Assembly (NCBI RefSeq): GCF_029232205.1 | Contig: NZ_CP107255.1 | Coordinates: 840,001-872,000, forward strand | DNA length: 32,000 bases | Source: Candidatus Saccharimonadota bacterium | Lineage (GTDB): Archaea > Nanohalarchaeota > Nanosalinia > Nanosalinales > Nanosalinaceae | Reading direction: 5' to 3' | Program-made: the position numbers and the translations under genes | Shown here: positions 1 to 32,000 of the stretch, one piece after another | Layout: each line of letters opens with the position of its first letter | How positions within the stretch are numbered: the first letter of the stretch is position 1 | The notes under the pieces: model-generated | Database searches by the model: none | Told to the model about the DNA's origin: nothing | The model's input: the letters and a program-made list of their open reading frames with translations, nothing else

Positions 1-1104
1 GAATGGAAGCCTGAGCTCTCGGCCATTACGGAAACTGATAACGTTATCACGGTAGAGATCTCTTTCAAATATCCCTCGAAGGCCTGAAAGACACTCCTTA
101 TTCAGATATCCTTGCTGACGGTGATAGCCAGCGTAAAGCTGCTCGCTACCTAGGCCAGAAAACACGACTTGCTCGTTATCCTGATTCTTCTGCAATGCAA
201 AGTGGAAAGGCAGGGCCACACCGTTCTTGACTACGGAGGTAGATGAAATCCAGTCAACGATTTCAGGCAAAACCTCTTCCACTTCTTCAAGACTGGCTTC
301 GTAGGCCTCAAGTTCGATATCCATTTCCTCGGCAATTTCCTGGGCCCAGTCCATGTCACGCGGCGCATTAACATTTCCATGTTGAATGCCTGCAGTATAA
401 GCGGTGAAACCCTTATCAAGTTCTTGCAGAGCCGCAGCAATAAGAGTAGAATCGACACCACCAGAGAACAGAAGGCCTACATCTCCTTCAGGAACCCTCT
501 TCTTCACGGCCCCTAGGAACTTCTCCTTTATCTCTTCAGCAGCTTGATCAATCTCTATGGCCTCTTTCACATCTATTTCAAAGAATTCTCTCTGCTGGAA
601 AGAAACTTCATCTTCCTCAATATCATATCTAAGTATTCTGCGAGGATGTAGTTCTCGACACTCCAAACCTTCTTTTTCCAAGGCCTGTCTCTCCGATGCA
701 AAAACAAACTCTTCATCAGAGTACCAGACAGGATTGACTCCGAGAACATCTCTTGCAATTATAATTTCACCATCTTTCAGGTATGCAAATGCGTAGATGC
801 CGTCAACCTCTTCAAGGCCTTCCACACCTTTCTCATCAAGCAGCTTAAGGAGTGTTTCAGCATCGTTTTCTGTCTCCCAGCCGTATTTTTCGTTCAACTC
901 TTTCCAGTTGTATATTTCGCAGTTAGCGGAGAGAAGGCCTTTATCCTCGATAGGTTGGGAAAGTTCTCCAACTACTGAGTGAAGGTAGTGGCCTATAGCA
1001 AAGTTTTCTATTTCAACTGTTTCACAGGAGCTGCCTCTGTGACTTAGATGCTGATTCAGGGCCTTTACTGTTTCCCTGTTTTTTGCTCCTGTTATTCCGC
1101 ACAT
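1..1104 (-). CDS. asnB: Asparagine synthase (glutamine-hydrolysing), AsnB-like; C-terminal end runs off the window
   Basis: Absent from the ORF track because it has no stop inside the window. My reverse-complement translation from ATG 1104..1102 gives MCGITGAKNRETVKALNQHLSHRGSSCETVEIENFAIGHYLHSVVGELSQPIEDKGLLSANCEIYNWK, the Cys2 Ntn-glutaminase start. The same frame gives VGLLFSGGVDSTLIAAALQE at 480..421 (PP-loop SGGxDS) and DLYRDNVISFRNGRELRLPF at 60..1. Confidence 0.85.
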   Translation of the reverse strand, partial: MCGITGAKNRETVKALNQHLSHRGSSCETVEIENFAIGHYLHSVVGELSQPIEDKGLLSANCEIYNWKELNEKYGWETENDAETLLKLLDEKGVEGLEEVDGIYAFAYLKDGEIIIARDVLGVNPVWYSDEEFVFASERQALEKEGLECRELHPRRILRYDIEEDEVSFQQREFFEIDVKEAIEIDQAAEEIKEKFLGAVKKRVPEGDVGLLFSGGVDSTLIAAALQELDKGFTAYTAGIQHGNVNAPRDMDWAQEIAEEMDIELEAYEASLEEVEEVLPEIVDWISSTSVVKNGVALPFHFALQKNQDNEQVVFSGLGSEQLYAGYHRQQGYLNKECLSGLRGIFERDLYRDNVISFRNGRELRLPF

Positions 1105-1209
1105 ACTATCTTGGTTGCAGGTGAAGACTTTTGAGTCTGTAACAGAACCACTAAGTCAGAAATTTACCAGTAACAGCATTTTTATGATTTCAAGTTGTAA
1201 AACTGGCTC

Positions 1210-1578
1210 ATGAGCAAAATAAGGGATAGACTGGGCGACAGACTTGAGCCTGGAAACAGTTCAGGCATGGAACTGAACGAGGAAAAACTACTGGAAGAAG
1301 ATACCACACCAGATAGAGAAAACACAGTAAGCTACCCAATACACTATTCCGAAGGTGCCGAAGGAGATTACGTAACTTTAAACTTCTCAGATCCTGTAGG
1401 CAAAAAGACTCTAATCCCCGACTATACAGCAACCCGCGTATCAAACTCTGATTCAACGGAAGTCTGGAGCGTCGGAGCTGAAGAAGGAACAGTCGAAGTA
1501 GAAGTAGATTCAAACATCAAATCGAAAGATAAACTCGCCAATGCATTGAAAACAGCATACGACGAGGCAATAAGATAG
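1210..1578 (+). CDS. Hypothetical small acidic protein
   Basis: 122-aa ORF with the host-typical A-rich codon style. A TATA-like CATTTTTATGA at 1177..1187 lies about 25 nt upstream of the ATG (leaderless-type layout). No recognisable motif. Confidence 0.5.
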   Translation: MSKIRDRLGDRLEPGNSSGMELNEEKLLEEDTTPDRENTVSYPIHYSEGAEGDYVTLNFSDPVGKKTLIPDYTATRVSNSDSTEVWSVGAEEGTVEVEVDSNIKSKDKLANALKTAYDEAIR

Positions 1579-1581
1579 AAA

Positions 1582-2370
1582 CTAGTCGGTGCTGTAGTCA
1601 GCAGAGAAGTCGGAAAGGCCTTTCTGCGAGTTATCTATTGCATCGTATGAGTTAATGACGTCAGCCATTTCAACCTCTACGAACTCGAGCTCGCGGTCCT
1701 CAAGGTAGTCCAGAACTTTATCCGTCATCTTCGGCGCGACAAGAATTCCTCGGATAGTTCCCTGGAACTCTTCATCGATCTCATCCACATACCGCTGAAG
1801 CTGCAGAACAGTGTTGTAATCCGGATTCCTCTTCACCTCTATAACCACATAGTTATTTTCTTCATCACGGGCGAACACATCGATAAATCCTGCAGGAGTT
1901 TCTCTTTCACGTTCAATAACTTTGAGGCCCTCCTCCACTATTTCAGGCTCCTCTTCAATCGACTCATGTATATCTACTTCGTGGCCGGCGATCTTGAGCT
2001 CGGATTTATCCACTAACTGATCGACAGTCAGCAGATCGATCTCCTCAAACCTGACCTCCACTACTTCCTCAGGATTATTCCTCTTGGCCTCCAGAATCAG
2101 ATGATCGTTCTCCTCATCAACTTCAACACTGTAAGAATCGACCTCTGGCTGCCAGTTCTTCGGCTGATAGTTTTCAGGCCCGTGAACAAGTATTGCAGAA
2201 TCCTGCTTCTTGATCACAAGTCTCTCCCCACGATCAAGTTTTGACTTCGCACGGCCCTGATAGTTAACCGAGCAGAGGCCGTTAATCTGCACAGTGTACT
2301 CGCGTGAAAGGTATTCTGCTAGGACTTCTCTGGCCTCCTCAATCTCAGGGCTTTGCAAAAACTTCTCCAT
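1582..2370 (-). CDS. nucS: Endonuclease NucS/EndoMS (RecB-like nuclease fold)
   Basis: N-terminal domain VNYQGRAKSKLDRGERLVIKKQDSAILVHGPENYQPKNWQP and C-terminal nuclease core GFIDVFARDEENNYVVIEVKRNPDYNTVLQLQRYV match the NucS family. The track ORF extends to 2415. I prefer the ATG at 2370 (MEKFLQSPE...), which gives the usual ~260 aa and avoids overlapping the radC leader. Confidence 0.85.
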   Translation of the reverse strand: MEKFLQSPEIEEAREVLAEYLSREYTVQINGLCSVNYQGRAKSKLDRGERLVIKKQDSAILVHGPENYQPKNWQPEVDSYSVEVDEENDHLILEAKRNNPEEVVEVRFEEIDLLTVDQLVDKSELKIAGHEVDIHESIEEEPEIVEEGLKVIERERETPAGFIDVFARDEENNYVVIEVKRNPDYNTVLQLQRYVDEIDEEFQGTIRGILVAPKMTDKVLDYLEDRELEFVEVEMADVINSYDAIDNSQKGLSDFSADYSTD

Positions 2371-2451
2371 ACCTAGGCCTTGGCAGGAAATACTTTTTAC
2401 AGTTTCCAGCACCACAGGTTTAAACCTGTCTGGAAAATATTCTGGTTAGAG

Positions 2452-3117
2452 ATGGACTACACCATCAAGGAACTGCCGGAAAGCGAAAGGCCTAGAGAGA
2501 AACTCGAAGATCACGGCCCGCAAAAACTTTCGGACGTAGAGCTTCTCTCCATTATTCTCAGGACAGGCACTAAAGGGAAGAACGTGAAGGAACTCAGCTC
2601 CGAAATACTGAACGAACACTCTCTGGAAGAAATAGCTGACAGAGGCCTCGACGAAATGAAAAAATTCAACGGCATCTCAAGAGTAAAGGCCGGTCAGCTC
2701 CTTGCAGTAGGAGAACTCTCCAGGAGACTGAAGAAGGAGGAAAGAGAGAAAATTCAGGGCCTTGAAGATGTGAAGGCCCGGACAGGCGACATGAAGTTCA
2801 TGGAGTCGGAGGTTCTGCGAGTTTTCTACCTTAACTCGGGCAACGAACTACTTGCTGAAGAAGAATTTGAAGGCACTGTCTCAGAGGTAGGCCTTAACAC
2901 CAGAGAAATCTTCCAGGCCGCTATGAACTGTAATGCAACTGCTATAATTCTTTCGCACAATCATCCTTCCGGAAAGGCCTCTGCTACGGAACAAGATATA
3001 GCTGTGACCCGTGAAATTATTGAATTGGGTGAAGGCCTTGGTGTTCAGGTGCTTGATCATGTTATAGTTGGGGAAGATTTCTGGAGTATGAGGGAGAATT
3101 CGGAAGTCAATTTCTGA
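2452..3117 (+). CDS. radC: RadC-like JAB/MPN domain protein
   Basis: MDYTIKELPESERPREKLEDHGPQKLSDVELLSIILRTGTKGKNV is the typical RadC N-terminus. The JAMM-like HNHPSG motif is present (ILSHNHPSGKASATEQD). The track start at 2380 adds 24 non-conserved residues, so the ATG at 2452 is preferred. Confidence 0.85.
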   Translation: MDYTIKELPESERPREKLEDHGPQKLSDVELLSIILRTGTKGKNVKELSSEILNEHSLEEIADRGLDEMKKFNGISRVKAGQLLAVGELSRRLKKEEREKIQGLEDVKARTGDMKFMESEVLRVFYLNSGNELLAEEEFEGTVSEVGLNTREIFQAAMNCNATAIILSHNHPSGKASATEQDIAVTREIIELGEGLGVQVLDHVIVGEDFWSMRENSEVNF

Positions 3118-3472: not shown

Positions 3473-4933
3473 ATGAACGAACAATTCCTGCAGCAGCTGA
3501 TCGATCGAAACATTGTAAAACACCAGATAGAGTCCTACAACAGGTTCGTGGACGAACGTATACAGAACATTCTCAACGAAGTCGGATCCATCGAACCAGA
3601 ACTACCTGATGGAGAAGACCTAGTAATCAAGATAGTAGACGTAGATATCAAGAGGCCTAAGATCAACGAAGCAGATGGATCTGTTCGACAGATCACACCT
3701 AAAGAGGCCCGAATGAGAGATCTTACCTATTCTTCAGAGATCAAAGTTACGATGACACCGATCTTCGAGGGAATCCAGCAGGAATCCGAAGAAGTTACCA
3801 TCGGAGAGATCCCAGTAATGGTTGGTTCCGAACTTTGCTGGACGTCAGAAATGGACGATGAAGAGCTCAGAGAAGCAGGAGAAGACCCAAAGGATCCAGG
3901 AGGATACTTCATCATCAATGGATCAGAGAAGACAATCATCTCCATGGAAGAAATGGCCAACAACAAGCCAATCTACCAGGAAGACGACGGAGAGCAGACC
4001 TGCAGAATTAACTCGGAGAACGAAGGATACGTTCAGAGACACATTCTGGAAAGAGACGACGATATCGTCGAGATCAGCTTTGCAAACGTAAAGAATACAC
4101 CAGCAATCGCACTGATCAGAGCTCTCGGTTACGAAACAGATAAAGAAATCGTCGAGCTTATCGGCGACGAATACGCATCCGACATCTACCTCAACCTTTA
4201 CGAAGTAGATGCATCAGACCAGGCAGAAGCCTTCGAATACATCGCAAACCGTGCAGGAGTCACAAACGACGTACAGGAAAGAGTTACCAGCATCCTAGAC
4301 GACTACCTTCTACCACACCTAGGACAGGAAGAAGAAGCACGAGACGACAAGGCCGAACTACTGGCAAACATGATCAGAAACACAATCGCACTCGGAAAAG
4401 GCGACATCAAAGAAGACGACATCGACCACTACGCAAACAAAAGACTCAACCTGGCTGGAGAACTACTGGAAATGCAGTTCAGATCAGTCTTCCTAGGAAA
4501 ATGGGGATTAGTCGCCAGAATGAAATACAACTTCCAGAAATCAGCAAAAAGAGGCCGACTACCATCACTACAGTCAACAGTAGTTGCAGACACTCTCAGC
4601 AAACAGATCATGGGAGCAATGGCAACAGGAAACTGGGTAGGAGGAAGAACAGGAGTATGCCAGAGCCTGGAAAGAAACAACCGTATCAAAACACTATCAC
4701 ACCTCAGAAACATTGTATCTCCACTGTCAAGCGACAGACAGCACTTCGAGGCCCGTGACCTGCATCCAACGCAGTGGGGCCGTGTCTGTCCAATCAAGAC
4801 ACCGGAAGGTATGAACATCGGACTGCGTACACATCTCGCTATGTCCGCTAACGTTTCAACCGGTATGAACGATATGGACAAGAACTCTTTGAAGGCAAAA
4901 CTTCAGGAAACCGGAATCAACGTGAGCCAATAA
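3473..4933 (+). CDS. rpoB2: DNA-directed RNA polymerase subunit B'' (N-terminal half of split Rpo2)
   Basis: 486 aa. The conserved RpoB segment HPTQWGRVCPIKTPEGMNIGLRTHLA lies near the C-terminus, and the gene sits between rpoH and rpoB'. Confidence 0.95.
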   Translation: MNEQFLQQLIDRNIVKHQIESYNRFVDERIQNILNEVGSIEPELPDGEDLVIKIVDVDIKRPKINEADGSVRQITPKEARMRDLTYSSEIKVTMTPIFEGIQQESEEVTIGEIPVMVGSELCWTSEMDDEELREAGEDPKDPGGYFIINGSEKTIISMEEMANNKPIYQEDDGEQTCRINSENEGYVQRHILERDDDIVEISFANVKNTPAIALIRALGYETDKEIVELIGDEYASDIYLNLYEVDASDQAEAFEYIANRAGVTNDVQERVTSILDDYLLPHLGQEEEARDDKAELLANMIRNTIALGKGDIKEDDIDHYANKRLNLAGELLEMQFRSVFLGKWGLVARMKYNFQKSAKRGRLPSLQSTVVADTLSKQIMGAMATGNWVGGRTGVCQSLERNNRIKTLSHLRNIVSPLSSDRQHFEARDLHPTQWGRVCPIKTPEGMNIGLRTHLAMSANVSTGMNDMDKNSLKAKLQETGINVSQ

Positions 4934-5010
4934 TGAATACTATGCGAATTCGTGAAAAACTAGTTGAGAAGGCAAAAGCCGCTAGAACAAGTTTCGAGAG
5001 GTGGGCCTAA
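4933..5010 (+). CDS. Candidate 25-codon micro-ORF bridging rpoB'' and rpoB' (MNTMRIREKLVEKAKAARTSFERWA)
   Basis: Its ATG overlaps the rpoB'' stop (TAATG at 4931..4935), and its TAA at 5008..5010 abuts the rpoB' ATG at 5011. The only support is this exact positional fit. Confidence 0.25.
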   Translation: MNTMRIREKLVEKAKAARTSFERWA

Positions 5011-6813
5011 ATGACCAAGGTATTCCTTGACGGAGAAATCCTTGGTGATGCAGAATCACCTGACGAAGCTCTAGAACAGCTAAAAGAAAAAAGAAGAAGT
5101 GGCGAAGTAGATCAGGAAGTCAGCATCTACTACGCAGAAGACAGAGACGAGATCAGAATCAACACTGACTCGGGGAGAGTTCTAAGGCCTCTTGTAATTG
5201 TAGAGGATGGAGAACCAAAGCTGACAGACGATCAGCTTGAAGACCTGAAAGAAGGAGAGATCTCACTCGAAGACCTGGAAGAGGAAGGAGTGCTTGAACA
5301 CCTCGATGCAGAGGAAGAAGAAAACGCATACGTAGCCCTCTCAGAAGACGAGGTAACTGAAGAACATACCCACATGGAACTTGATCCAGAGATTATCAAC
5401 GGAGTATCCGCATCACTGACAGTCTACCCTGAACACAACAGAGGAGACCGTGTCAACTTCGGAGCAAAAATGGCAGGCCAGGGACTTGGAATGCCAGCAA
5501 GAGAGTTCCACCAGAGATTCGACACACAGTCAAACATTCTAACATACCCACAGCAACCGATCGTGGAAACAAATACTTACGACACACTGGTAGGAGACCA
5601 CCCAATCGGCCAGAACATGGTTGTAGCACTCGCATCCTTCGACGGATACAACATCGAGGACGCAGTCATCATGAACCAGGACGCCATCGACAGAGGCGTA
5701 GGCCGATCAACATACATGAGAACCTACCAGACAGAAGCACAGCGATTCTGGGGAGGCCAGCAAGACGAAATCGGCATCCCAGACAAAGACGTCAGAGGAT
5801 ACAGAAGAGAAGAAGTATACACACACCTCGACGAAGACGGAATCGCAAACCCAGAGACAGAAGTAGACAGCGATGACGTACTAGTAGGAAAGACATCTCC
5901 ACCAAAATTCCTGGGATCAGGAGGCGGAGAAGAAATCCAGATGGGACTGGCAGACAGAAGAGAAACATCCCTAACCGTAAGACACGGAGAAAAAGGAAAA
6001 GTCGACAAAGTAATGGTCTCAGAAACAAGCGACGGAGACAAACTCATCAAAATGAAAATGAGAGAATACAGAGTCCCAGAGCTTGGAGACAAGTTCGCAA
6101 CAAGACACGGACAGAAAGGAACAGTCGGAATGACAGTTCCAGAAGTCAACATGCCTTTCACAAAACAAGGTATCACACCAGACATCATTCTCTCCACACA
6201 CGCAATCCCAAGCCGTATGACAGTAGCACAGCTAATCGAGCTCATGGCCGGAAAAGCCGGCGCAATGAGAGGAGAACCTGTCGACGGAACAGCATACCAC
6301 AACGAATCCAAAGAAGAAGTAAAAGACATGTTGGAAGAAATGGGATTCGAAAAAACAGGCAAGGAAACAATGTACAACGGCCTGACAGGAGAAGAAATGG
6401 AAGCAGAAATCATGATCGGCCCAGCATACTACCTAAAGCTAAGCCACATGGTTGGAGACAAGGTCCACGCAAGAAGCAGAGGGCCTGTCACACTGCTCAC
6501 AAAACAACCTACCGAAGGCCGCTCCCAGGAAGGAGGACTCAGACTGGGAGAGATGGAAAAGGACGTCTTCGTAGGCCATGGAGCCTCACTCCTACTCAAG
6601 GAGAGGTTCGGAGCTGACTCCACAGAAATCAAGGTATGTGAGAACTGTGGAGAAATCGCAATCGAAGACAAGGCCGAGAACAAACAGTACTGTCCAAACT
6701 GTGAGACAGGTGACCTCGGCGAAACCGAAATCCCACACGCATTCCTACTACTCATGAACGAGTTGAAATCCATGATGATGGACACAACACTCGAACTGGA
6801 GGACGAGGAATAG
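5011..6813 (+). CDS. rpoB1: DNA-directed RNA polymerase subunit B' (C-terminal half of split Rpo2)
   Basis: 600 aa with FATRHGQKGTVG, GGLRLGEMEKDV and a C-terminal zinc ribbon (CENCG...CPNC). SD GAGGTG at 4998..5003 lies 7 nt upstream of the ATG. Confidence 0.95.
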   Translation: MTKVFLDGEILGDAESPDEALEQLKEKRRSGEVDQEVSIYYAEDRDEIRINTDSGRVLRPLVIVEDGEPKLTDDQLEDLKEGEISLEDLEEEGVLEHLDAEEEENAYVALSEDEVTEEHTHMELDPEIINGVSASLTVYPEHNRGDRVNFGAKMAGQGLGMPAREFHQRFDTQSNILTYPQQPIVETNTYDTLVGDHPIGQNMVVALASFDGYNIEDAVIMNQDAIDRGVGRSTYMRTYQTEAQRFWGGQQDEIGIPDKDVRGYRREEVYTHLDEDGIANPETEVDSDDVLVGKTSPPKFLGSGGGEEIQMGLADRRETSLTVRHGEKGKVDKVMVSETSDGDKLIKMKMREYRVPELGDKFATRHGQKGTVGMTVPEVNMPFTKQGITPDIILSTHAIPSRMTVAQLIELMAGKAGAMRGEPVDGTAYHNESKEEVKDMLEEMGFEKTGKETMYNGLTGEEMEAEIMIGPAYYLKLSHMVGDKVHARSRGPVTLLTKQPTEGRSQEGGLRLGEMEKDVFVGHGASLLLKERFGADSTEIKVCENCGEIAIEDKAENKQYCPNCETGDLGETEIPHAFLLLMNELKSMMMDTTLELEDEE

Positions 6814-6825
6814 AGGTGATCAATC

Positions 6826-9300
6826 ATGAAGGATATTGAAAGCATCGACTTTGGAATTATGAGCGCAGAAAAACTTCAGAAACTCGCAGTCAAGGAAATC
6901 GACCAGGCAGAAGTCTACGACGCAGACGGATACCCAGTCGAAGACGGCGTAATGGATCCTGCGCTAGGAGTTATCGACCCAGGAATGACATGTCAGACCT
7001 GTGGTGGAAAAATCCGAGAATGTAAGGGACACTTCGGACTAATCACACTATCCAAGCCAGTAGCACACGTCATGTACGCAAAACAGATCAGAAACCTTCT
7101 CAGATTCACACACGTCAACGAGAACGGAAACGTGACCTGCCTGGCCAAGGACCTAGACAAAAACCTGCGAAAAAGCAACAGAATGAAAGAAGACCCTGAA
7201 ACAGGAGAAGAAGTACCGGAAGTCGATCTAGACAAACCATACTCATACAAGATCGACGGAGAAGAAATCAAACCGGACGAAATCAGAGAAAGACTATCCA
7301 AGATCCCAGACGACATAGCAGCAGACCTGGGAATGGAGGGCGCAAGACCTGAAGACCTTATCCTGACACACGTACCGGTACCGCCGGTAACAATGAGGCC
7401 TTCAATCACACTGGAAACAGGAGAAAGATCTGAAGACGACATCACACACAAGATGGTTGACGTCATCAGGATCAACAAGAGACTGCAGAACAACATCGAA
7501 ATCGAGGCCCCAGACTTCATTATCGACGACCTCTGGGAACTACTGCAGTACCACGTAGCAACAATGTTCTACAACGACATGAGCAGCGTGCCACCAGCAA
7601 GACACAGATCAGGAAGAAGCCTCAAATCCGTCATGGAAAGAGTACAAGGAAAGCAAGGCCGCTTCCGACAGAACCTGATCGGAAAACGTGTAAACTTCTC
7701 CGCAAGAACAGTAATCTCCCCAGACCCAAACATCGGGATCAACGAAGTCGGAGTACCATTCCTAGTAGCAAAGAAACTATCAATCCCAGAAAAAGTAACA
7801 GAAAGAAACTGGGAACAAGTCAAAGAATGGATGGAAAACGGGCCTGACACACACCCAGGAGCAAACTACGTATACCAGCCAGACGGCTCCAGAAGAAGAA
7901 TTACAGATGAAAACCTTGAAGACCTACTGGAGGCCATCGAACCAGGAGAAGGATGGAAAGTCGAAAGACACCTGAAAGACGGAGACACCGTACTATTCAA
8001 CCGTCAACCATCCCTACACAGAATGTCCATCATGGCCCACGAAGTCAAAGTACTACCGCACAGAACATTCAGACTGAACCTGAACGTATGTGCACCGTAC
8101 AACGCAGACTTCGACGGTGACGAAATGAACCTGCACGTACCACAGACAGAAGAAGCACGTGCCGAAGCAGAAGAACTGATGAAAGTACAGGAACACATCA
8201 AATCGCCGAAGATGGGAGGCCCAATCGTAGGTATGCTACAGGACTACGTGTCCGGACTATACCTGCTAACACAGCCAGACAGAACACTCAGCAGAGAAAA
8301 AGCATTCAACCTTCTTGCTGAGGCCAACGAATACGAGAAAGAACTTCCAGACCAGGAAGAAATCTCAGGCCGTGAGATTGTCTCAATCTTCATCCCAGAC
8401 GACATCTCCCTCACAATCAACGAAGACGATGACAACACAGTAATCATCGAAGACGGAGAACTAGTCGAAGGAGTACTGGACGAAGACGCACTCGGAGACT
8501 ACGGAGGAGAAATCATCCAGCAACTAAGCATCGAATACGGAAGCGATAAAGTTGCAGAATTCCTCAACCGTGTCTCAAGAGTAGGAGCAATCTTCCTAAC
8601 AAAGAGAGGATTCTCAATCGGCCTCGACGACCTCGAAGTACCAGACGAAACAACCAACAAGATCAGAAACCTAGTAGAGGAAACAGTCGAAGACACAGAA
8701 GAAATCATCAAGGAATACGAAAGAGGAGAAATGGAATCCATCACAGGAAAAACCATTGAAGAAACAAGAGAAATCAGGGTGACAAAAACACTCAACGAAG
8801 TATTCACGGACATCGGAGACCTCGTAAGAGACGAAATCGACGATGACTCATCCGCATACATCATGGCAGACTCAGGAGCAAGAGGCTCCCTACAGAACGT
8901 TACAACCATGGCAGGCCTACTAGGCCAGAACTCTGTAAGAGACCAGAGAATCAACCGTGGATACAAAGACAGAACAACATCCCACTTCAAGAAAGGAGAA
9001 CTTTCACCAAAATCAAGAGGTTTCGTAGGATCCTCAATCCTCGGAGGCCTCGACGAAGTAGAGATGTTCTTCCACCAGATGTCTCAGAGAAAGGCACTGA
9101 TGGACAAGTCACTCCGAACAAAGACATCCGGATACATGTATAGAAGAGTATCCAACTCCCTACAGGACCTGACAGTCGAAGAAGACCAGTCAGTAAGAAA
9201 CGCACAGGGAGACATCGTCCAGTTCAGAGCTGGAGAAGACGGAGTGGACCCACAAAAATCTGATAGAGGCCTTATCTCTACAGACATTGAAACGAGGTGA
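6826..9300 (+). CDS. rpoA1: DNA-directed RNA polymerase subunit A' (Rpo1N)
   Basis: 824 aa with the N-terminal zinc motif CQTCGGKIRECKGHFG and the catalytic YNADFDGDEMNLHVPQ. SD GAGGTGA at 6813..6819. Confidence 0.95.
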   Translation: MKDIESIDFGIMSAEKLQKLAVKEIDQAEVYDADGYPVEDGVMDPALGVIDPGMTCQTCGGKIRECKGHFGLITLSKPVAHVMYAKQIRNLLRFTHVNENGNVTCLAKDLDKNLRKSNRMKEDPETGEEVPEVDLDKPYSYKIDGEEIKPDEIRERLSKIPDDIAADLGMEGARPEDLILTHVPVPPVTMRPSITLETGERSEDDITHKMVDVIRINKRLQNNIEIEAPDFIIDDLWELLQYHVATMFYNDMSSVPPARHRSGRSLKSVMERVQGKQGRFRQNLIGKRVNFSARTVISPDPNIGINEVGVPFLVAKKLSIPEKVTERNWEQVKEWMENGPDTHPGANYVYQPDGSRRRITDENLEDLLEAIEPGEGWKVERHLKDGDTVLFNRQPSLHRMSIMAHEVKVLPHRTFRLNLNVCAPYNADFDGDEMNLHVPQTEEARAEAEELMKVQEHIKSPKMGGPIVGMLQDYVSGLYLLTQPDRTLSREKAFNLLAEANEYEKELPDQEEISGREIVSIFIPDDISLTINEDDDNTVIIEDGELVEGVLDEDALGDYGGEIIQQLSIEYGSDKVAEFLNRVSRVGAIFLTKRGFSIGLDDLEVPDETTNKIRNLVEETVEDTEEIIKEYERGEMESITGKTIEETREIRVTKTLNEVFTDIGDLVRDEIDDDSSAYIMADSGARGSLQNVTTMAGLLGQNSVRDQRINRGYKDRTTSHFKKGELSPKSRGFVGSSILGGLDEVEMFFHQMSQRKALMDKSLRTKTSGYMYRRVSNSLQDLTVEEDQSVRNAQGDIVQFRAGEDGVDPQKSDRGLISTDIETR

Positions 9301-10421: not shown

Positions 10422-10509
10422 ACCCCTCAAACTCCAATCCCTTTATAAAAACTAGGATTGTTTTAATTACTACAGACATCACGACAAAATATTTTTCTAA
10501 GGAGATAAC

Positions 10510-21371: not shown

Positions 21372-21401
21372 AAACCTTCTTCACAGGCCGTAAAAGGCCT
21401 A

Positions 21402-22057: not shown

Positions 22058-22075
22058 AAACAGCCATTAACAGCC

Positions 22076-22087
22076 CCACATATTTTT
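22076..22087 (+). terminator. CCACATATTTTT 3'-end motif
   Basis: T5 run 25 nt after the stop of the orphan ORF. Confidence 0.4.
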
Positions 22088-22142
22088 CCCTTATCTTATA
22101 ATTCTCTTTTTAACCACCTATAAAGGCCTGAAAAACCACATA

Positions 22143-22160
22143 CCCTTTTTAAAGTTTAAC
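22143..22160 (+). promoter_or_regulatory. Putative tuf promoter (CCCTTTTTAAAGTTTAAC)
   Basis: Shares the TTTAAAGTTTA core with the rpoH promoter element and AAAGTTTA with the rps12 one. It is followed by SD AGGTGA at 22189..22194. Confidence 0.5.
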
Positions 22161-22201
22161 AGAGTAATCCTCAATTATACGCATCAATAGGTGACCACCA
22201 A

Positions 22202-24002: not shown

Positions 24003-24341
24003 ATGAGTCTTTTTGGAGAAACCGAGGAACGAGCTGTAAACTACGTGGCCGACAGACTTGAAGACTTTGAATACGGAGAAGCAGCAGCTAAAACAGGAAC
24101 AGTAGCAGGCCTTTCAGGCGCAGGAGCAGCACTCGCCAGCAACAACGTAGGCCTCGGAGTACTATCGTTCGCAGTCGGAAACTTCTCACACAATGTCAGC
24201 ACAGAACTGGCCTCAAGACCCGAATACGGCCTCAACGTTTCAGACGAAGAAATAGAGGAAATGGTCGACGGCGAACTATACATGGAAGACATCGATGTAG
24301 AAGACATTGATACTGACTACGAGTTTGAAAAGGATGAGTGA
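24003..24341 (+). CDS. Hypothetical small protein, paralog B (Gly/Ala-rich core, acidic tail)
   Basis: 112 aa. TATA-like ACATATTTTAACC lies about 25 nt upstream. Its stop overlaps the GTG start of the downstream membrane protein (GTGA at 24338..24341). Confidence 0.5.
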   Translation: MSLFGETEERAVNYVADRLEDFEYGEAAAKTGTVAGLSGAGAALASNNVGLGVLSFAVGNFSHNVSTELASRPEYGLNVSDEEIEEMVDGELYMEDIDVEDIDTDYEFEKDE

Positions 24342-25636
24342 AGAACTCTGAAACAGTGAAACAGAAGAAGGCCTTAACTATTCTAGCAACTATAACTGCA
24401 GCAGTATTTATTCTCAAGGCCTTTCCAATGGCCGGTGCATCTACAGTACCTCCTGGATGGATAGATACTAGTTATCATACATCGACCGCGGTAGACGTTT
24501 CCAGCGGCGATCTTGACAGCCTGATGCACCCATGGTGGCACATACAGGGCAACTCAGCAACAGTAGGCGACGTCCCAGTAATAGACAGAAACTCGAAAAC
24601 ATTCTACTACCCGCCATTCCTCCACCTATTCATGGCCTCATTCATGCTAATACTGCCCGCAGGCCTCGCAACAATACTATCGATATCGCTTATATACAGT
24701 CTGACAGCCCCAGCAACATATCTTCTGACAAGATCATACGAAATAGACAGAAAATCAAGTCTACTGGGCGCAGCCTTCGCAGCAACATCAATACCGCTAA
24801 TCCACTCACAGATCATGGGATTCTGGTCATTCGCAGCAGCATTCATACTGGGAATAACAGCATTCAGCTTCTACAGACTACACAGAAAACACGGAGGCCG
24901 AAAACTCCTGGCAGCATACCTGTTAACCGCAACAGCTACAGTCCTAACACACTGGGTATTCGGAGCATTCATAATAGGCATGCCACTACTCAGCACATTA
25001 CTCGAAGAAAAAACAATTGACTGGAAAATACCAGGCCTCGCACTTGCAACAGTACTACCACACTATGTAGCATTCTTTGCAACATCAAAACTTTCAATCT
25101 ACAGCACCACAACATTCGACAAGTTCTACACCTCTATAACACCTATCGCAATAATCGGAGGCCTTCTCATCAGCAGAGGCCGCAACAGAACAATCGACCT
25201 ATTCTCAGCAGGAAGCCTTGCAGGAATGACAGCCTACTACCTCGGAGCACCAATCACATTCGGAGGAATGATACAGTTTGCACTACCAGTACTGGCCGGA
25301 TTCTACATAGCAGACACAAGAAAAAGAATCAACGGGAAAGAACTTGCAAAGGCATTCACAATACTGACAACAGTATTCATAGCTGCCAGTATGATTTCAC
25401 AGGCCGCAATAGGAAACAACTCTGGAAGAGTGCTGACAGAAGACCAGTTCCACGGCCTGTTAGATGCAAGAGATAAAATACCTGAAGAAAAGATTGTAGC
25501 AGGGCCTGAAGTCGGCGCCTGGATAACACTTGCATCCGGAGAAAACAGGATAGTCAATCCCTACGCAGAATACAATGCTTCAAAACTTGATGAAAGGTTC
25601 TACGTGCTCTCTACAGCTAGGGGAGCAAGGCCCTGA
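24338..25636 (+). CDS. Polytopic membrane protein, possibly a GT-C/STT3-like glycosyltransferase core
   Basis: 432 aa with about 11-13 hydrophobic segments. A first-loop acidic stretch WIDTSYHTSTAVDVSSGDLD and a C-terminal VAGPEVGAWITLASGENRIVNP loosely resemble the STT3/AglB EL1 and WWDYG..NR..DN regions. Membrane topology is well supported; the functional call is weak. Confidence 0.6.
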   Translation: MKNSETVKQKKALTILATITAAVFILKAFPMAGASTVPPGWIDTSYHTSTAVDVSSGDLDSLMHPWWHIQGNSATVGDVPVIDRNSKTFYYPPFLHLFMASFMLILPAGLATILSISLIYSLTAPATYLLTRSYEIDRKSSLLGAAFAATSIPLIHSQIMGFWSFAAAFILGITAFSFYRLHRKHGGRKLLAAYLLTATATVLTHWVFGAFIIGMPLLSTLLEEKTIDWKIPGLALATVLPHYVAFFATSKLSIYSTTTFDKFYTSITPIAIIGGLLISRGRNRTIDLFSAGSLAGMTAYYLGAPITFGGMIQFALPVLAGFYIADTRKRINGKELAKAFTILTTVFIAASMISQAAIGNNSGRVLTEDQFHGLLDARDKIPEEKIVAGPEVGAWITLASGENRIVNPYAEYNASKLDERFYVLSTARGARP

Positions 25637-26723: not shown

Positions 26724-27881
26724 ATGGCAGCAGGACTTGCAGCCGGCACACTATACAACGTTGGAATACTGCTGATGGCATCATTTATCCTCGGAGAACT
26801 ATTCGAGAGAATAGGCCTTGAATCAATACTAGGATACATCACCGCCGGACTGTTACTCGGACCTTCATTCCTTAGCGTGATGGACGCATCCGCAGTACAA
26901 TCCTTCGCAACAATCGGAGTCTCACTAGTACTATTCAACGCAGGCCTCAGAGAGGAGAACGCCGCAGATATTTTCAGGCATAGACAAGGCCTGCAGCTAG
27001 GACTTGGAATTCTTGCAGGATCTTTCGCACTGATATTTGCAGCGCTGTACTTCTTTGGATCGCAGTTCCTACCTTACAACACGTTGACACAGTTCCTGTT
27101 CATCGCACTGGCATACGCAGTAGTCGACATCGGCATCCCATCCAAAATCATGATGAGCCGTGGAATGCTCAGAGAAGAAACAGGCAAGTACACGATCAAA
27201 TCCGCAGTCATCAACGTCACAGCAGGACTACTCGCACTAACAGGCCTCGTACTGGTCTTCTCACCTGGAGAAAATATCGCTATGAGGCTCGGAGGAATCC
27301 TGGGCTTCGCAGCAGTATTCTATCTTCTGCACGAAACCATTCACAGGATCGATGACTACATCATCAACTTCGAGGAGACAGAGGCCCAGTTCGCAATAAC
27401 ATTCGCATTCCTACTAGGCCTCTCCTACATGACAGAGATTGTAGGCCTTTCAACAGTACTCGGAGCATTCTTCGCAGGAATCATCGTATCAAGAAGCGAC
27501 TTCTCCGAATCCAAGGCCTTCCAAGAAAAGATCAATGCGATCGGACTCGGACTATTCATCCCGATATTCTTCGCATGGTTCGGCCTCGGACTACATGTTT
27601 CCAGCATTATCGCGAACATTGAGGCAGCAGTCTTCCTGTTTGGCCTATCCACAGTCTCCAAGCTGGGGATAGGTTACGCAGCCTCGAAGCTTCACGGTAT
27701 GGACAAGCCAGGAACTATCGCAGCATCGCTGATTTCGCTGGATATTGAGACACTGGTCGTGCTGCTGATCGGAAAAGACATGGGCCTCTTCGGACCCGAA
27801 ATCCTGCAGATGTTCGCACCAGCAGTACTGCTTTCGACACTCACAATCGTACTGCTGTACGCACTCATCGACCGCAGGTAA
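26724..27881 (+). CDS. Cation:proton antiporter, CPA2/Kef-type membrane domain without an RCK domain
   Basis: 385 aa. ILLMASFILGELFERIGLESILGYITAGLLLGPSFL is the typical Na_H_exchanger family N-terminus, and the protein is polytopic throughout. It starts 1 nt after the CBS gene stop. Confidence 0.8.
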   Translation: MAAGLAAGTLYNVGILLMASFILGELFERIGLESILGYITAGLLLGPSFLSVMDASAVQSFATIGVSLVLFNAGLREENAADIFRHRQGLQLGLGILAGSFALIFAALYFFGSQFLPYNTLTQFLFIALAYAVVDIGIPSKIMMSRGMLREETGKYTIKSAVINVTAGLLALTGLVLVFSPGENIAMRLGGILGFAAVFYLLHETIHRIDDYIINFEETEAQFAITFAFLLGLSYMTEIVGLSTVLGAFFAGIIVSRSDFSESKAFQEKINAIGLGLFIPIFFAWFGLGLHVSSIIANIEAAVFLFGLSTVSKLGIGYAASKLHGMDKPGTIAASLISLDIETLVVLLIGKDMGLFGPEILQMFAPAVLLSTLTIVLLYALIDRR

Positions 27882-28416: not shown

Positions 28417-29370
28417 ATGCAGGAAGACCCAGAGATAAAACAACACTTCGACCTCAACTCAGTAGACTATGACAGGTACATGGGCACCAACCAGCACGGA
28501 ATGATGCACTACGGAGACCACACAGAATACCAGAGAAACTGGAAAGAAAAAATACTGGCCAAAACAGGCCTCATAACCAGAAAAGAAGTAAAACAGGCAG
28601 TAGTACACAGAGTAGAGGCCCTCGCAGAAAAAGCAGACATACAGCAAGGAGACACCGTACTGGACTCAGGATGCGGCCGCGGAGGAAACACAATCTGGCT
28701 GGCCAAAAACACCAACGCAGAAAAAATAATAGGCCTCGACATCGACAAAGACCTCCTGGAAAAAGCCAGAGAAAACGCCGAAGAAGCAGGAGTAGAAGAA
28801 AAAGTAGAATTCATACACCAGGACTACGATAACCTCCAACTAGACAACTTCGACGTATACTTCGCAATCGAAAGCCAGGCCTACTCCCAAGACGAAAGAA
28901 AACTGGCAGAAAACATCTACAAAGGCCTAAACCCCGGAGGAAGACTGGTAATCACCGACGGATTCCGGACAGAAAAATTCTCCGAAAAACACGAACAAAT
29001 ATCCAGAAAAATGCATATCGGCTGGGGAGTCGACTACATGGCCTACAGATCCAACTTTGAAAGATTCCTCAAACAAGCAGGATTCCAGAACATCCAGGTA
29101 GAACCGCTCATGGAAAAAATAGCTCCCACCTCAAAATACCTGCACAGGGCCTCCGTACTCACAACGCCATACGTACAGCTAAGACTTGAAATAGCAAAAG
29201 GCCTGAACACACTAACAGACAGCATAGGCCTCAACACAGAGAAAAAAGAGAAAGAAGTCAAGAGATACCGCCAGCTCAGAAACCTCACCACCACAGGCCG
29301 CTACCAGTACATCGCCGGTAAAAAAGAGATATTCAACCAGTTCGACTTCTACGCAGAGAAACCCGAGTAA
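28417..29370 (+). CDS. Class I SAM-dependent methyltransferase
   Basis: 317 aa with motif I VLDSGCGRGGNTIWLA, the acidic post-I residue in IIGLDID, and LNPGGRLVITD. The substrate cannot be inferred. Confidence 0.8.
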   Translation: MQEDPEIKQHFDLNSVDYDRYMGTNQHGMMHYGDHTEYQRNWKEKILAKTGLITRKEVKQAVVHRVEALAEKADIQQGDTVLDSGCGRGGNTIWLAKNTNAEKIIGLDIDKDLLEKARENAEEAGVEEKVEFIHQDYDNLQLDNFDVYFAIESQAYSQDERKLAENIYKGLNPGGRLVITDGFRTEKFSEKHEQISRKMHIGWGVDYMAYRSNFERFLKQAGFQNIQVEPLMEKIAPTSKYLHRASVLTTPYVQLRLEIAKGLNTLTDSIGLNTEKKEKEVKRYRQLRNLTTTGRYQYIAGKKEIFNQFDFYAEKPE

Positions 29371-30195
29371 TTAGGCCTCCTTGATAGGATCCACTTCTTC
29401 AATGAACCTCTTAACCTCTTCTTGTGCTGCGACTCGAACACCATACTTCCCTGCTTTACTTCCTCTCACACCAATATTAGAACACATCTCAAGGAAGTCA
29501 TCAAGCAGCGGCCTAGATCTGTTCTTGAAATGAACAACCTTGTAGCCGTCCTCAGATCGCAGGTATATCGAACCATCTGTGTTAGTAAGCCCTCTTAGAC
29601 ATGAATTAGACAGAGCTTTAGAATTTTTTACCCACTCTGGAACTCCTACTTGATGTTTTACCTTATTGCCAGGAACTAGACCCACCTCCTTGAGACCCTC
29701 AACTATCTTCTTTCCGTAAACTCAGATTTATGGCTGATCATGGCTAAATTCTTCAACTGAAGGTTCTTTACTAAGACATTCTTTGATCAAGTAGTTAGCC
29801 CTCGAAATAATCTTTTCTTCCTCAGAGCTGAAAGAAATCTTCAAGTGATGGTTAGACACATGTCTATCGCCACGATCATAGGATTTATCGCTCAAATGTC
29901 CGTCTCCTAAAATCATGCCAACTAGTTCGGCAGTCAACTCATTTTTAATCAGGTCTATCGATGAAAACTTTCCTATCCCATTTTCATACTCTATATATTC
30001 ATACTGAACATCACCGTCATATAGAGTCTTTAGAGCCTCAAAAGAATCACTTGGAATACTTGTTCCCGAATAAAGATGATTTCTGAAGCCGCTATCTATC
30101 TCTGCTGAAATATCATCTAGAGTGAACCCCTCGGCTTTGAGAGAATCATAAACCTTTTGCAGCTCAGACTTAGGGACCTTAACCCTTCTCTCCAT
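29371..30195 (-). pseudogene. LAGLIDADG homing endonuclease (double-motif) interrupted by two in-frame stop codons
   Basis: Track ORFs 29728..30291 and 29371..29685 are in the same frame, separated only by TAA-ATC-TGA (29730..29722). The first carries LVGMILGDGHL and the second LRGLTNTDGSI. The likely start is the ATG at 30195 (MERRVKVPK...). The upstream extension to 30291 overlaps the tRNA and is spurious. Confidence 0.75.
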
Positions 30196-30256
30196 AGAAA
30201 CGCAATAACTAGTTTGTTTTTTAAGAGTTCCAATTCTTATTACGAGATACAGCAAC

Positions 30257-30360
30257 AGTCCCCTGGTGTAGTGGCCAAATACCTTCAACACTATGTTAAG
30301 GTAGGCAATTCATAGCGGCCTTTGGAGCCGCTGACCCAGGTTCGAATCCTGGGGGGACTA
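30257..30360 (+). tRNA. tRNA-Gln (anticodon UUG) carrying a ~31 nt insert (putative non-canonical intron) in the D-loop
   Basis: The first 22 nt (AGTCCCCTGGTGTAGTGGCCAA) are identical to tRNA-Gln(CUG). After the insert comes TCAT-A-GCGGC-CTTTGGA-GCCGC-TGAC-CCAGG-TTCGAAT-CCTGG-GGGGACT-A, a complete cloverleaf once 30279..30309 is removed. Confidence 0.75.
30279..30309 (+). other. Putative D-loop tRNA intron (ATACCTTCAACACTATGTTAAGGTAGGCAAT)
   Basis: Defined by alignment to the intron-less paralog. It contains a 6-bp hairpin, TACCTT (30280..30285) paired with AAGGTA (30298..30303). Boundaries are ambiguous by 1-2 nt because of the flanking A and T runs. Confidence 0.6.
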
Positions 30361-31043: not shown

Positions 31044-31044
31044 G

Positions 31045-31070
31045 CTGGAGTCAATATTTCAAAACTCCAG
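31045..31070 (+). terminator. Hairpin CTGGAGT-N12-ACTCCAG immediately after the stop codon
   Basis: A perfect 7-bp inverted repeat (31045..31051 with 31064..31070) followed by a pyrimidine-rich stretch. Confidence 0.3.
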
Positions 31071-31236
31071 ACACATCTTCCTTCTTTACATTCAAGCCTA
31101 GAATAGGAAGTCCTTAAGCTAAAACAGCAAATACACCAGCAACAATAGATTCAGAGAGCAATACAGTCGCCACATTCTTATTGAAGCAATATACTTAAAT
31201 TTTTGAGGGATAAATGTTTGTTATTGGTGAACAAAA

Positions 31237-31689
31237 ATGCAAGGAGCTCATGAATACGATACCGGCATCCGGTGGAAGGACGGAGTCTCTGATGAGAATG
31301 TCGAGGCCCTGGCAGAGGTAACGGACGATGTAGCTGCTAGGCTTGACTACTTCACGGAACTCTACAGGGATGGAGAGGTAGAAAGAGAAAGAATCGACCG
31401 ACTTGTGGCTCTGGGGGAGAGAGCACTCCGGGCAGAAGGAATCTGGAGGGACGAAACACGAGGCCTCGAGGCCACGTACGAAGAACTTGAATCGCGTGGC
31501 GAAGAAGAAATCAGTGAGGTAGAAGATATTCAGGAAGTCTTTAGCGGAGAAGAACACAGTCTTGAGGACTACAGCAATGAATTCGTGGAAGAGGCCGAAG
31601 CATACAGCAGCGATCCAGAAACCAGGCTATGGAAAGCACAGGAACGATATCGCGAAGCACTGGGAGAACTCAGAGAGCTGGAAAACTAG
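31237..31689 (+). CDS. Hypothetical acidic helical protein
   Basis: 150-aa ORF with GGTGA 6 nt upstream of the ATG. No motif recognised. Confidence 0.5.
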   Translation: MQGAHEYDTGIRWKDGVSDENVEALAEVTDDVAARLDYFTELYRDGEVERERIDRLVALGERALRAEGIWRDETRGLEATYEELESRGEEEISEVEDIQEVFSGEEHSLEDYSNEFVEEAEAYSSDPETRLWKAQERYREALGELRELEN

Positions 31690-31740
31690 GCAGGCCTCCA
31701 AACATCCTACTTTTTTAGATTCAGCCACATAATTTGAACT

Positions 31741-32000
31741 ATGAACCGGAAGAAGGCCTTTCTATTCCTTGCAATGGGAGTTACAGGAGTACTGATCTTC
31801 CTGATGATATCTCCTTACCTGGGCTATCTGCTTACAGGAGGAATACTGGCCTTTATGCTGCATCCAGCGAAAAGATTTTTCGATAACTACACCAAGTACT
31901 CGGCAGCGGCCGTAATAATGATGACATTTCTCATGGCGGTTTTCCCACTGGTACTGACAGCTGGAGCAGTAGCGAACGATGCCAGCGACATGGTATCAAC
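31741..32000 (+). CDS. AI-2E family (PerM/UPF0118-like) membrane transporter, N-terminal fragment; continues beyond the window
   Basis: My translation from ATG 31741 gives MNRKKAFLFLAMGVTGVLIFLMISPYLGYLLTGGILAFMLHPAKRFFDNYTKYSAAAVIMMTFLMAVFPLVLTAGAVANDASDMVS. The pattern of two TM helices flanking LAFxLxP resembles this family. Confidence 0.6.
   Translation, partial: MNRKKAFLFLAMGVTGVLIFLMISPYLGYLLTGGILAFMLHPAKRFFDNYTKYSAAAVIMMTFLMAVFPLVLTAGAVANDASDMVS

Follow-up and report, generated by a model that had tools for sequence, protein, structure and literature searches.

The palindromic hexanucleotide AGGCCT occurs about 10 times more often than chance would predict in the genome of a nanohaloarchaeon from which we analyzed a stretch of 32,000 nucleotides (contig NZ_CP107255.1, positions 840,001 to 872,000; this whole stretch is hereafter called the window). 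Comparison with related genomes shows that the hyper-abundance of AGGCCT is a lineage-specific trait of a subset of the Nanohaloarchaeota, present or absent between sister lineages. It is produced by a directional force that acts on the complete hexamer in all the DNA sampled, is strand-symmetric, operates in coding and noncoding DNA, and is blind to the base being replaced. We read AGGCCT, with a probability of about 0.45, as a lineage-specific highly iterated palindrome (HIP), the marked or bound sites of which would be favored in DNA import or recombination. The enrichment has not been previously reported in the literature searched, including papers on the genus Nanohalovita.

The window almost certainly derives from Candidatus Nanohalovita haloferacivicina strain BNXNv, judging by its encoded proteins: the cation:proton antiporter is 100% identical over 385 residues to a protein of this species, and the published gene numbers agree (Kef-type antiporter, BNXNv_0968; S-adenosylmethionine (SAM)-dependent methyltransferase, BNXNv_0971, which probably is the SAM-dependent methyltransferase of the window). 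Relatives of the encoded EF-2 (elongation factor 2) likewise assign the window to the Nanohaloarchaeota. According to its published description, BNXNv is a cultured DPANN ectosymbiont of Haloferax with a chromosome of 1,046,959 bp and a GC content of 45.0%.

AGGCCT is the strongest outlier among hexanucleotides

The forward strand of the window contains 71 AGGCCT sites, or 2.2 per kb over the 32,000 nt, with the following first bases:

Part 1: 80, 303, 473, 681, 815, 935, 1616, 2375, 2488, 2643, 2889, 2975, 3033, 3370, 3653, 5185, 7396, 8913, 9045, 9267
Part 2: 11245, 12241, 12505, 13155, 13308, 13618, 13763, 14328, 15154, 15777, 16113, 16434, 16506, 16737, 16788, 17241, 17467, 17623, 18547, 19880
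Part 3: 21395, 22124, 23751, 24107, 24149, 24369, 24417, 24661, 25033, 25159, 26813, 26942, 26987, 27242, 27416, 27443, 27514
Part 4: 28566, 28731, 28877, 28923, 29199, 29226, 29373, 30486, 30554, 30579, 30933, 31461, 31692, 31754

Expected counts were derived from base composition (M0) and from Markov models of orders 1 to 4 (M1 to M4), with both-strand values halved. M0 predicts 6.0 sites and M1 predicts 6.7, in line with the preliminary description of the window, which had set about 71 sites against an expected handful; the second- and third-order models predict 19.7 and 45, respectively. Under M1, AGGCCT is the strongest outlier among all 4096 hexamers (z ~35). The maximal-order model, M4, predicts 69 sites against the 71 observed, and we discarded this null as circular: over half of the AGGCC and GGCCT words lie inside AGGCCT, so that the model is uninformative because its sub-words mostly derive from the hexamer itself.

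The proposal that codon or dicodon usage does not account for the excess was upheld by shuffling synonymous codons inside each gene (n = 500), a null that keeps the protein and the per-gene codon usage, the latter already inflated by the sites. Shuffled coding sequences contained 15.6 ± 3.4 AGGCCT (maximum 28 in 500) compared with the 65 observed, and 83.8 ± 6.8 GGCC compared with 206. We regard a natural control as the best one: the same genes in 30 non-enriched nanohaloarchaea contain 0.21 AGGCCT per kb, with an observed-to-expected ratio (O/E) of 1.00 under M1. The enrichment is real under all sensible nulls.

The GGCC core is also frequent, with 227 occurrences in the window compared with 62 (M1) or 89 (M0) expected, and the 14 copies previously counted in 1..1200 were recovered. 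Full sites account for 71 of them, half-sites (AGGCCN or NGGCCT) for 109, and other GGCC for 47. As had been noted, sites occupy all three codon phases: 42 are xxA-GGC-CTx, 17 are xAG-GCC-Txx, and 6 are AGG-CCT, the assignment following phase arithmetic and counts of synonymous positions. Six more sites are intergenic (1.95 per kb, against 2.25 per kb in coding sequence); the three intergenic examples given before are indeed of this kind, but their positions were off by 1 to 6 nt, the true ones being 13763, 21395, and 22124. The apparent dependence of codon choice on context could be put into numbers. Glycine is encoded by GGA in 57% of cases overall and by GGC in 82% inside xxA-Gly-CTx, alanine is encoded by GCC in 17 of the 18 cases inside xAG-Ala-Txx, and AG directly precedes GCC in 35% of cases, against 12% before any alanine codon.

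The trait is switched on and off between sister lineages

The comparison set comprised 42 nanohaloarchaeal loci, the window included, each of about 20 kb around the gene for elongation factor 2 (EF-2), except for L041 (4 kb). AGGCCT is enriched 8- to 17-fold over M1 in 11 of these loci, at 1.8 to 3.6 sites per kb: the window, L001 (strain M3_22), L007 (SG9), L017 (Nanosalina VS9-1), L008, L012, L015, L021, L022, L023, and L041. It is the top palindrome in all 11, with M1 z-scores of 18 to 48 in most loci other than the window and of 10.8 in L041. One locus, L025, is intermediate (3.9-fold), and the remaining 30 are non-enriched, with a pooled O/E of 1.00. Two cultured species are without the trait: the enrichment is 1.3-fold in Candidatus Nanohalococcus occultus SVXNc and 0.3-fold in Candidatus Nanohalobium constans LC1Nh.

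A bootstrapped neighbor-joining tree of nine concatenated proteins (3225 columns, 100 replicates) recovered the enriched genomes as monophyletic in none of the 100 replicates. Enriched L015 grouped with non-enriched L032, L038, and L024 in 100/100 replicates, enriched L007 and L008 grouped with non-enriched L004 to L006 in 81/100, and enriched L023 paired with the intermediate L025 in 100/100. Within carriers, the enrichment is likely genome-wide: three VS9-1 loci, which cover about 62 kb in two chromosomal areas, contain 3.5 to 3.9 sites per kb, and two SG9 loci contain 3.3 to 3.5 per kb, the second locus having 3.5 per kb.

Two further observations concern palindromes in this set. GGCC is depleted relative to M1 in non-enriched L003 (0.26-fold), L009 (0.36-fold), L034 (0.35-fold), L042 (0.44-fold), and LC1Nh (L169; 0.57-fold); L002, a close sister of L003, lacks this depletion (1.07-fold). 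Judged from these ratios, the depletion looks like restriction avoidance caused by a fast-turnover GGCC-specific system. The contrasts imply that, within the phylum, some lineages avoid the GGCC core and others amplify it. Besides AGGCCT, further hexamer palindromes show a mild excess (M1 z ~4 to 8) in enriched and non-enriched genomes alike, for example TCCGGA (L003, L017, and L019), GATATC (L009, L018, L020, and L029), GTCGAC (L002, L003, and L016), and AGTACT (the window). These are probably codon-pair effects, as they spell common residue pairs of acidic proteomes (Ser-Gly, Asp-Ile, and Val-Asp).

A base-independent force acts on the complete hexamer

To measure the pull on each base, we scored coding places at which 5 of the 6 bases already fit and the remaining one is a third-codon base that synonymous codons allow to vary, treating the strongly enriched genomes apart from the pair formed by the window and L001. 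The completing base is used in 85% to 95% of cases across the six positions in the strongly enriched genomes (odds ratio relative to non-enriched relatives, 7 to 48) and in 62% to 96% in the window and L001 (odds ratio, 3 to 52), compared with 15% to 63% in the relatives; about 68% of the reachable positions in the window are filled. The force thus has a log-odds of about 3 to 4 in the strongly enriched genomes, compared with about 2.3 for the window. Position 4 is fourfold degenerate, and its counts of A/C/G/T are 114/44/46/86 in the relatives and 10/189/4/8 in the enriched genomes, so that each of A, G, and T has dropped about 47-fold against C. With odds ratios of 22 to 31, the pull on the outer A and T is as strong as that on the cytosines. 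Where enriched genomes read AGGCCT at Gly-Leu, Arg-Pro, and Lys/Glu-Ala positions, the orthologous words of their relatives are AGGACT, AGACCT, AGGTCT, or AAGCAT, and transversions such as GGA to GGC make the commonest class of sites.

Words that differ from the site at one inner position remain near the levels of the relatives (O/E ~0.5 to 1.4), whereas outer variants are raised: NGGCCT variants exceed M1 1.1- to 2.8-fold in the strongly enriched group and 3.0- to 4.8-fold in the window, against 0.5- to 1.4-fold for inner variants, and the share of position 6 among one-off variants rises from 0.05-0.10 to 0.09-0.19. The pattern is the equilibrium expected if only the whole site is favored, with a weaker preference for a core that has one of its flanks, rather than the outcome of a base-specific mutational pathway. 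Relative to non-enriched relatives, full sites in the window are raised 10.8-fold, half-sites 3.7-fold, and flankless GGCC 1.6-fold, which is near a multiplicative model of independent flanks, by which full sites would be raised 8.6-fold. The corresponding values in the strongly enriched genomes are 15-fold, 1.5-fold, and 0.6-fold, that is, the hexamer is cooperative.

The pull is not translational, since noncoding density is higher than coding density in the strongly enriched genomes (6.3 versus 2.7 sites per kb; 1.8 versus 2.1 in the window and L001) and both half-site orientations are raised in proportion, the coding-strand ratio being 2.0 to 2.2 in all groups, including the non-enriched one. 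Outside the six bases there is no flank consensus (Kullback-Leibler divergence <0.06 bit per position), and AGGCCT is therefore not part of a mobile or tandem repeat. The distances from one site to the next follow a roughly exponential distribution (coefficient of variation, 1.0 to 1.1), with a slight deficit below 30 bp. The positional conservation of sites is 0.45 to 0.69, compared with 0.24 to 0.31 for phase-matched control hexamers (0.52 versus 0.40 between the window and L001). Shared positions were set aside as proof of descent or selection: with about 90% of the available positions filled in the strongly enriched genomes, positional sharing distinguishes neither common descent from convergence nor selection from drive.

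The intermediate locus L025 indicates a recent loss of the force that has left a fossil footprint. Its near-site density (2.18 per kb) is still raised to that of its sister L023 (2.33 per kb; baseline, ~1.1 per kb), whereas its occupancy has fallen to the baseline value of 0.22, compared with 0.75 in L023. AGGCCT sites of L025 are conserved with L023 at 0.17, against 0.33 for control hexamers. The spectrum of its decayed sites, a small sample, is indistinguishable from baseline and offers no evidence on cytosine methylation.

Sites accumulate where proteins tolerate change

As previously reported, sites are unevenly distributed among genes, and all regional counts given before proved right. 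The main dense and sparse regions of the window, together with the genes they contain, are as follows:

1..3117, dense block of 13 sites: asparagine synthase, NucS, and RadC
1-1104, minus strand, asparagine synthase gene: 6 sites
1582-2415, minus strand, NucS/EndoMS mismatch endonuclease gene (Pfam NucS_N and NucS_C): 2 sites
2380-3117, plus strand, RadC gene: 5 sites
3473..10932, plus strand, sparse block of rpoB'', rpoB', rpoA', rpoA'', and a gene for a NusA-like KH protein: 6 sites in 7.5 kb
19179..23488, plus strand, sparse block of EF-2 (1 site, 19880) and EF-1alpha (0 sites), with intergenic sites 21395 and 22124
24003..25636, plus strand, dense block of two open reading frames (ORFs) without known family: 7 sites
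26724..27881, plus strand, dense block, cation:proton antiporter: 7 sites (6.0 per kb)
28417..29373, plus strand, dense block, class I SAM-dependent methyltransferase (gene 28417-29370): 6 sites and one at the 3' edge
29371..30291, minus strand, free-standing remnant of a LAGLIDADG homing endonuclease (LAGLIDADG_3, E 2.4e-7) in two adjacent ORFs: one site, at the edge

Informational genes of the window (rpo, EF, S12, S10, and NusA) have 0.68 sites per kb, compared with 3.3 per kb elsewhere. Their occupancy is similar, at 0.53 against 0.71 in other genes (0.89 against 0.84 in the strongly enriched genomes), and reachable positions number 1.0 to 2.1 per kb in informational genes and 4.0 to 4.7 per kb in others, the baseline in relatives being 1.1 to 1.3 per kb; for the informational genes of the window, there are 1.28 reachable positions per kb, 53% of them occupied. 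Informational genes thus have few sites because few positions can be reached without a change of protein, not because of occupancy. Reachable positions above baseline outside informational genes imply that the excess was built by changes beyond one synonymous step. The frequency of Gly-Leu dipeptides climbs from 5.3 to 7.4-8.5 per 1000 residues (by 40% to 60%) and that of the pattern [KEQ]A[SFLYCW] from 2.7 to 4.1-4.4 per 1000 (by 55% to 65%), although the frequencies of single residues are unchanged, and the residues encoded by site codons agree less often with the majority among relatives (0.747 compared with 0.811). The force has thus recruited amino-acid changes where proteins tolerate them, and conserved informational genes carry few sites because such changes were recruited only there.

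The LAGLIDADG remnant has a GC content of 0.39 to 0.43, lower than the 0.46 of the whole window, and is nearly devoid of AGGCCT and GGCC. This scarcity fits the expectation for recently acquired or decaying mobile DNA, and it fits a build-up of sites only after DNA has resided in the genome, although one remnant is far too small a sample for a test. A faint LAGLIDADG_3 ORF was also seen in SVXNc, at another place (L167, 15267-15818). In the VS9-1 locus L170, a giant gene for a DUF2341 surface protein (>3000 aa) has only 5 sites in the 3.6 kb of its 5' part (17526-21158; 1.4 per kb, against 3.5 per kb for the whole locus); giant genes of this SPEARE-like type may have a younger age or other constraints than the remaining genome.

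No driver gene was identified in the window and the compared loci

Neither the window nor the compared loci encode a DNA methyltransferase, Vsr, or restriction enzyme, and a motif scan of them found no C5 or N4/N6 DNA methyltransferase. The SAM-dependent methyltransferase of the window (28417-29370) has no DPPY or PCQ motifs and was rejected as a DNA methyltransferase. NucS was likewise rejected as the driver because it is present in both trait states: the enriched SG9 and VS9-1 have orthologues, as do the non-enriched SVXNc and LC1Nh, and NucS is also found on contigs that probably correspond to non-enriched L002, L006, L013, L016, L029, and L032. With M.HaeIII as the query (confirmed against PDB), a search of 5.8 billion proteins had, among the matches listed, only close bacterial homologues, and a tblastn search of plasmids for a GGCC methyltransferase yielded mostly enterobacterial matches.

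A scan of viral contigs for AGGCCT triplets returned at least 120 matches, the majority of which were tandem repeats or came from unrelated contigs whose proteomes are not acidic, and is silent on nanohaloarchaeal viruses. Two unrelated contigs, both of non-halophile composition, have dispersed sites, L045 (IMGVR_UViG_3300029432_000018; GC 0.36) with 13 AGGCCT in 3.6 kb against ~1.3 expected, an excess that appears to extend to AAGGCCTT, and L155 (GC 0.65) with 24 in 13.9 kb against ~4.7 expected. Hyper-abundance of this kind may exist in other hosts.

What maintains the sites

The likely cause named in the preliminary description, a sequence-specific recognition system, is accepted here, and the binding or uptake signal that it had kept as a fallback is compatible with all the evidence. 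The route of recognition and exchange that we prefer is inferred from analogy with cyanobacterial HIPs and bacterial uptake sequences. A protein would read AGGCCT as a symmetric dimer, as suggested by the six symmetric positions, all of which are read out, the outer ones slightly less. An accessory gene, gained and lost, would encode this protein, which would mark the sites, probably by cytosine methylation, or directly bind them. Site-bearing DNA would then be favored in DNA import and/or in homologous recombination between cells or chromosome copies, and site-bearing alleles would be over-transmitted, a molecular drive that is mathematically equal to biased gene conversion and would be opposed solely by purifying selection on proteins. 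Import of environmental DNA by nanohaloarchaea is proposed in the published description of BNXNv.

Several points weigh against this reading. No recognition protein, methyltransferase, or uptake gene was found in the window and the compared loci. The published description reports for BNXNv only a type III Mod/Res pair (BNXNv_0801/0802), from which adenine methylation is expected, and the only reports of Dcm-like cytosine methyltransferases concern the non-enriched SVXNc. The core and flanks act roughly independently in the lineage of the window and the hexamer is cooperative in others, so the recogniser may differ between lineages. Competence, inter-cell recombination, and polyploidy are only presumed in nanohaloarchaea, and sequence data do not separate drive from ordinary selection for a function in cis.

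Such selection is a serious rival. It supposes a nucleoid- or chromosome-organizing, repair, or replication protein that needs dense sites, with a small gain per site and no transmission bias, and it predicts the same equilibrium as biased conversion, including a whole-hexamer, base-independent pull, conservation above phase-matched controls, and presence in coding and noncoding DNA; for HIP1, both selection and a role in the nucleoid were advocated by Xu et al. (PMC5861425). We nevertheless judge it unlikely to be the explanation. Local spacing is near random (coefficient of variation, ~1.0 to 1.1) rather than even or periodic, although loci of 20 to 32 kb are too short to reveal periods of 10 to 90 kb. 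The trait is absent from sister genomes of like gene order and lifestyle, including two cultured species, so that any function in cis would have to be dispensable, and L025 lost the trait without obvious change to its genome.

The mechanism favored in the preliminary description, in which a GGCC- or AGGCCT-specific 5-methylcytosine (m5C) methyltransferase coupled to Vsr- or Mig-like T:G repair converts near-sites to sites, as Dcm and Vsr do for CCWGG in E. coli, is contradicted as the sole cause, and we now regard it as improbable. The motif is palindromic with a GGCC core, cytosine methyltransferases specific for GGCC and for AGGCCT exist, and the window encodes the mismatch endonuclease NucS. 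In enriched genomes, AGGTCT/AGACCT also makes up a somewhat smaller share of the one-off words (odds ratio 0.72, p = 0.005; for the window and L001, 0.51, p = 2e-5), but this is largely explained by the rise of outer-position variants. The predicted depletion of one-step transition neighbors did not materialize in absolute terms: in the window, O/E is 1.18 for AGGTCT/AGACCT and 0.88 for AGGCTT/AAGCCT, and the strongly enriched genomes have values of 0.94 and 1.08, respectively. Nor are the tetramer neighbors GGTC and GGCT more depleted than GGAC. T-to-C repair fails because it cannot pull the outer A and T, which are drawn like the cytosines, and it does not account for the equal depletion of A, G, and T at position 4 or for transversions forming the commonest class. 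By simple reasoning, a pure T-to-C drive at most doubles C, whereas the observed excess is 10- to 17-fold. The occurrence of NucS in non-enriched genomes, the lack of a reported cytosine methyltransferase in BNXNv, and, within a small sample, the lack of a deamination signature in L025 point the same way.

We give still less credence to a force imposed by the host, in which a haloarchaeal methyltransferase, nuclease, or DNA-handling protein would act in trans through the cytoplasmic bridges that nanohaloarchaea form with their hosts and the patchiness of the trait would follow host identity. In a related consortium, symbiont and host have been proposed to exchange methyltransferases, sister symbionts differ in the trait, and no candidate driver is reported in BNXNv; however, SVXNc also has a Haloferax host and is non-enriched, and the support is entirely indirect. 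Finally, a by-product of composition, of amino-acid or dicodon usage, or of copies of a mobile or tandem repeat bearing AGGCCT can practically be dismissed, for although the commonest class encodes Gly-Leu and the M4 model reproduces the count, that model is circular, codon shuffling yields 15.6 sites instead of 65, orthologous proteins of relatives show no excess, noncoding DNA has as many sites per kb as coding DNA or more, sites fall in all three phases, and there is neither flank conservation nor tandem structure.

Comparison with known iterated motifs

Cyanobacterial HIPs (HIP1, GCGATCGC; alternates GGCGCC, GCSGC, and RCCGGY; Elhai 2015, PMC4390886; Xu et al. 2018, PMC5861425) are the closest in kind. 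Like AGGCCT, they are short palindromes with a GC core and the top outlier words of their genomes, lie in every reading frame and in noncoding DNA, are absent from some close relatives, have one-nucleotide deviants at outer positions, and are positionally conserved above controls. AGGCCT reaches about 1800 to 3900 sites per Mb, compared with 300 to 2700 for HIP1, whereas its O/E is 8 to 17 compared with 55 to 228, the lower ratio resulting from the higher baseline of a hexamer. AGGCCT further differs in occurring in Archaea (DPANN), in being 6 bp long with A/T outer bases, and in having additive flanks in the lineage of the window, whereas HIPs act as one unit. HIP genomes carry a cognate methyltransferase, and none of the expected type is reported for BNXNv. 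HIP1 raises transformation efficiency in a methylation-dependent manner and correlates with DNA-transfer genes.

The uptake signal sequences and DNA uptake sequences (USS/DUS) of Pasteurellaceae and Neisseriaceae (Findlay and Redfield 2009, PMC2817400) resemble AGGCCT in their density, on the order of one per kb, in building up within coding DNA to the detriment of protein sequence, in avoiding conserved genes, and in a drive model that needs no benefit per site. The peptides encoded by USS/DUS are roughly doubled, and those encoded by AGGCCT rise by 40% to 65%; the USS/DUS "dialect" differs between related lineages, and AGGCCT is present or absent between sister species. USS/DUS are, however, 9 to 12 bp long, asymmetric, and bound by a competence pilin, whereas AGGCCT is a 6-bp palindrome without extended consensus, and, in contrast to USS/DUS competence, import of environmental DNA by nanohaloarchaea is only proposed.

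The sites of Dcm/Vsr (CCWGG in E. coli) are, like AGGCCT, over-represented palindromes of the methyltransferase type for which DNA repair, not function, was proposed as the origin, but that bias is modest and specific to T neighbors, whereas that of AGGCCT is 10- to 17-fold, equal for all replaced bases, and inclusive of the A/T flanks. The StuI-type restriction-modification system of Alcanivorax borkumensis SK2 (PMC12128166), which methylates AgGCcT, has AGGCCT as its recognition sequence and shows that proteins read this palindrome and methylate its cytosines; that system serves defense, and the genome has 1674 AGGCCT sites (PMC12128166). Restriction-site avoidance has the opposite sign to what is seen in the enriched nanohaloarchaeal genomes, where AGGCCT is over-represented. 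Restriction normally selects against sites, and in the A. borkumensis SK2 genome of ~3.1 Mb, the sites amount to ~0.5 per kb, which is no hyper-abundance. A Chi-like hotspot does not fit, AGGCCT being palindromic and its half-site orientation ratio equal to that of non-enriched genomes.

Gene order in the window

Apart from the genes listed above, the window contains genes for rpoH, a glycosyltransferase, an ABC1 kinase, S12, an MFS transporter, a HAD hydrolase, S10, a CBS protein, and a DtxR-type repressor. NucS/EndoMS and a RadC-like JAB protein are encoded back to back just upstream of rpoH (1582-3469), an order shared with VS9-1, SG9, SVXNc, and LC1Nh. The classical rpo-str operon is heavily interrupted, as seen from the inserted genes and the missing recognizable S7: the NusA-like gene and S12 are parted by the glycosyltransferase and the ABC1 kinase, no recognizable S7 gene follows S12 within 13813-19082, and between S12 and EF-2 lie two overlapping ORFs without known family (14232-15281 and 15037-15618), the MFS transporter, a zinc-ribbon ORF, the HAD hydrolase, which is encoded on the other strand, and a 395-aa ORF without known family. 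Long EF-2 match spans (2.8 to 3.3 kb) in L001, L007, L009, L013, L018, L019, L022, L023, L025, and L029 raised the possibility of inteins or insertions, which was rejected, as codon alignment shows no internal insertion; the spans are long because the tblastn match runs on into the GTPase domain of the downstream EF-1alpha.

Implications

The motif skews codon usage and dipeptide content and thereby biases codon- and k-mer-based analyses such as binning and the detection of horizontal gene transfer and genomic islands. If site-bearing or methylated DNA is taken up or recombined better, as with HIP1, AGGCCT may offer a handle for the genetic manipulation of a DPANN archaeon. If a single accessory gene is the switch, it could be found by phylogenetic profiling, given genomes of about 1 Mb, several sister pairs with and without the trait, and the cultured BNXNv.

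HIP1 was first described about three decades ago, and its origin and function are still debated. AGGCCT is an independent case in another domain of life, with a different motif and in very small genomes, and so makes the phenomenon general; the repeated gains or losses between sisters, a decaying lineage, and a cultured carrier provide a tractable system in which drive can be parted from selection. We would only tentatively, and with more doubt than conviction, go as far as to see in AGGCCT the first self-recognition DNA tag in Archaea, that is, an uptake or recombination signal, possibly methylation-dependent, spread by molecular drive in DNA-importing DPANN symbionts with one accessory gene as the switch. 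Were this so, it would help to settle the 30-year question of what highly iterated palindromes do.

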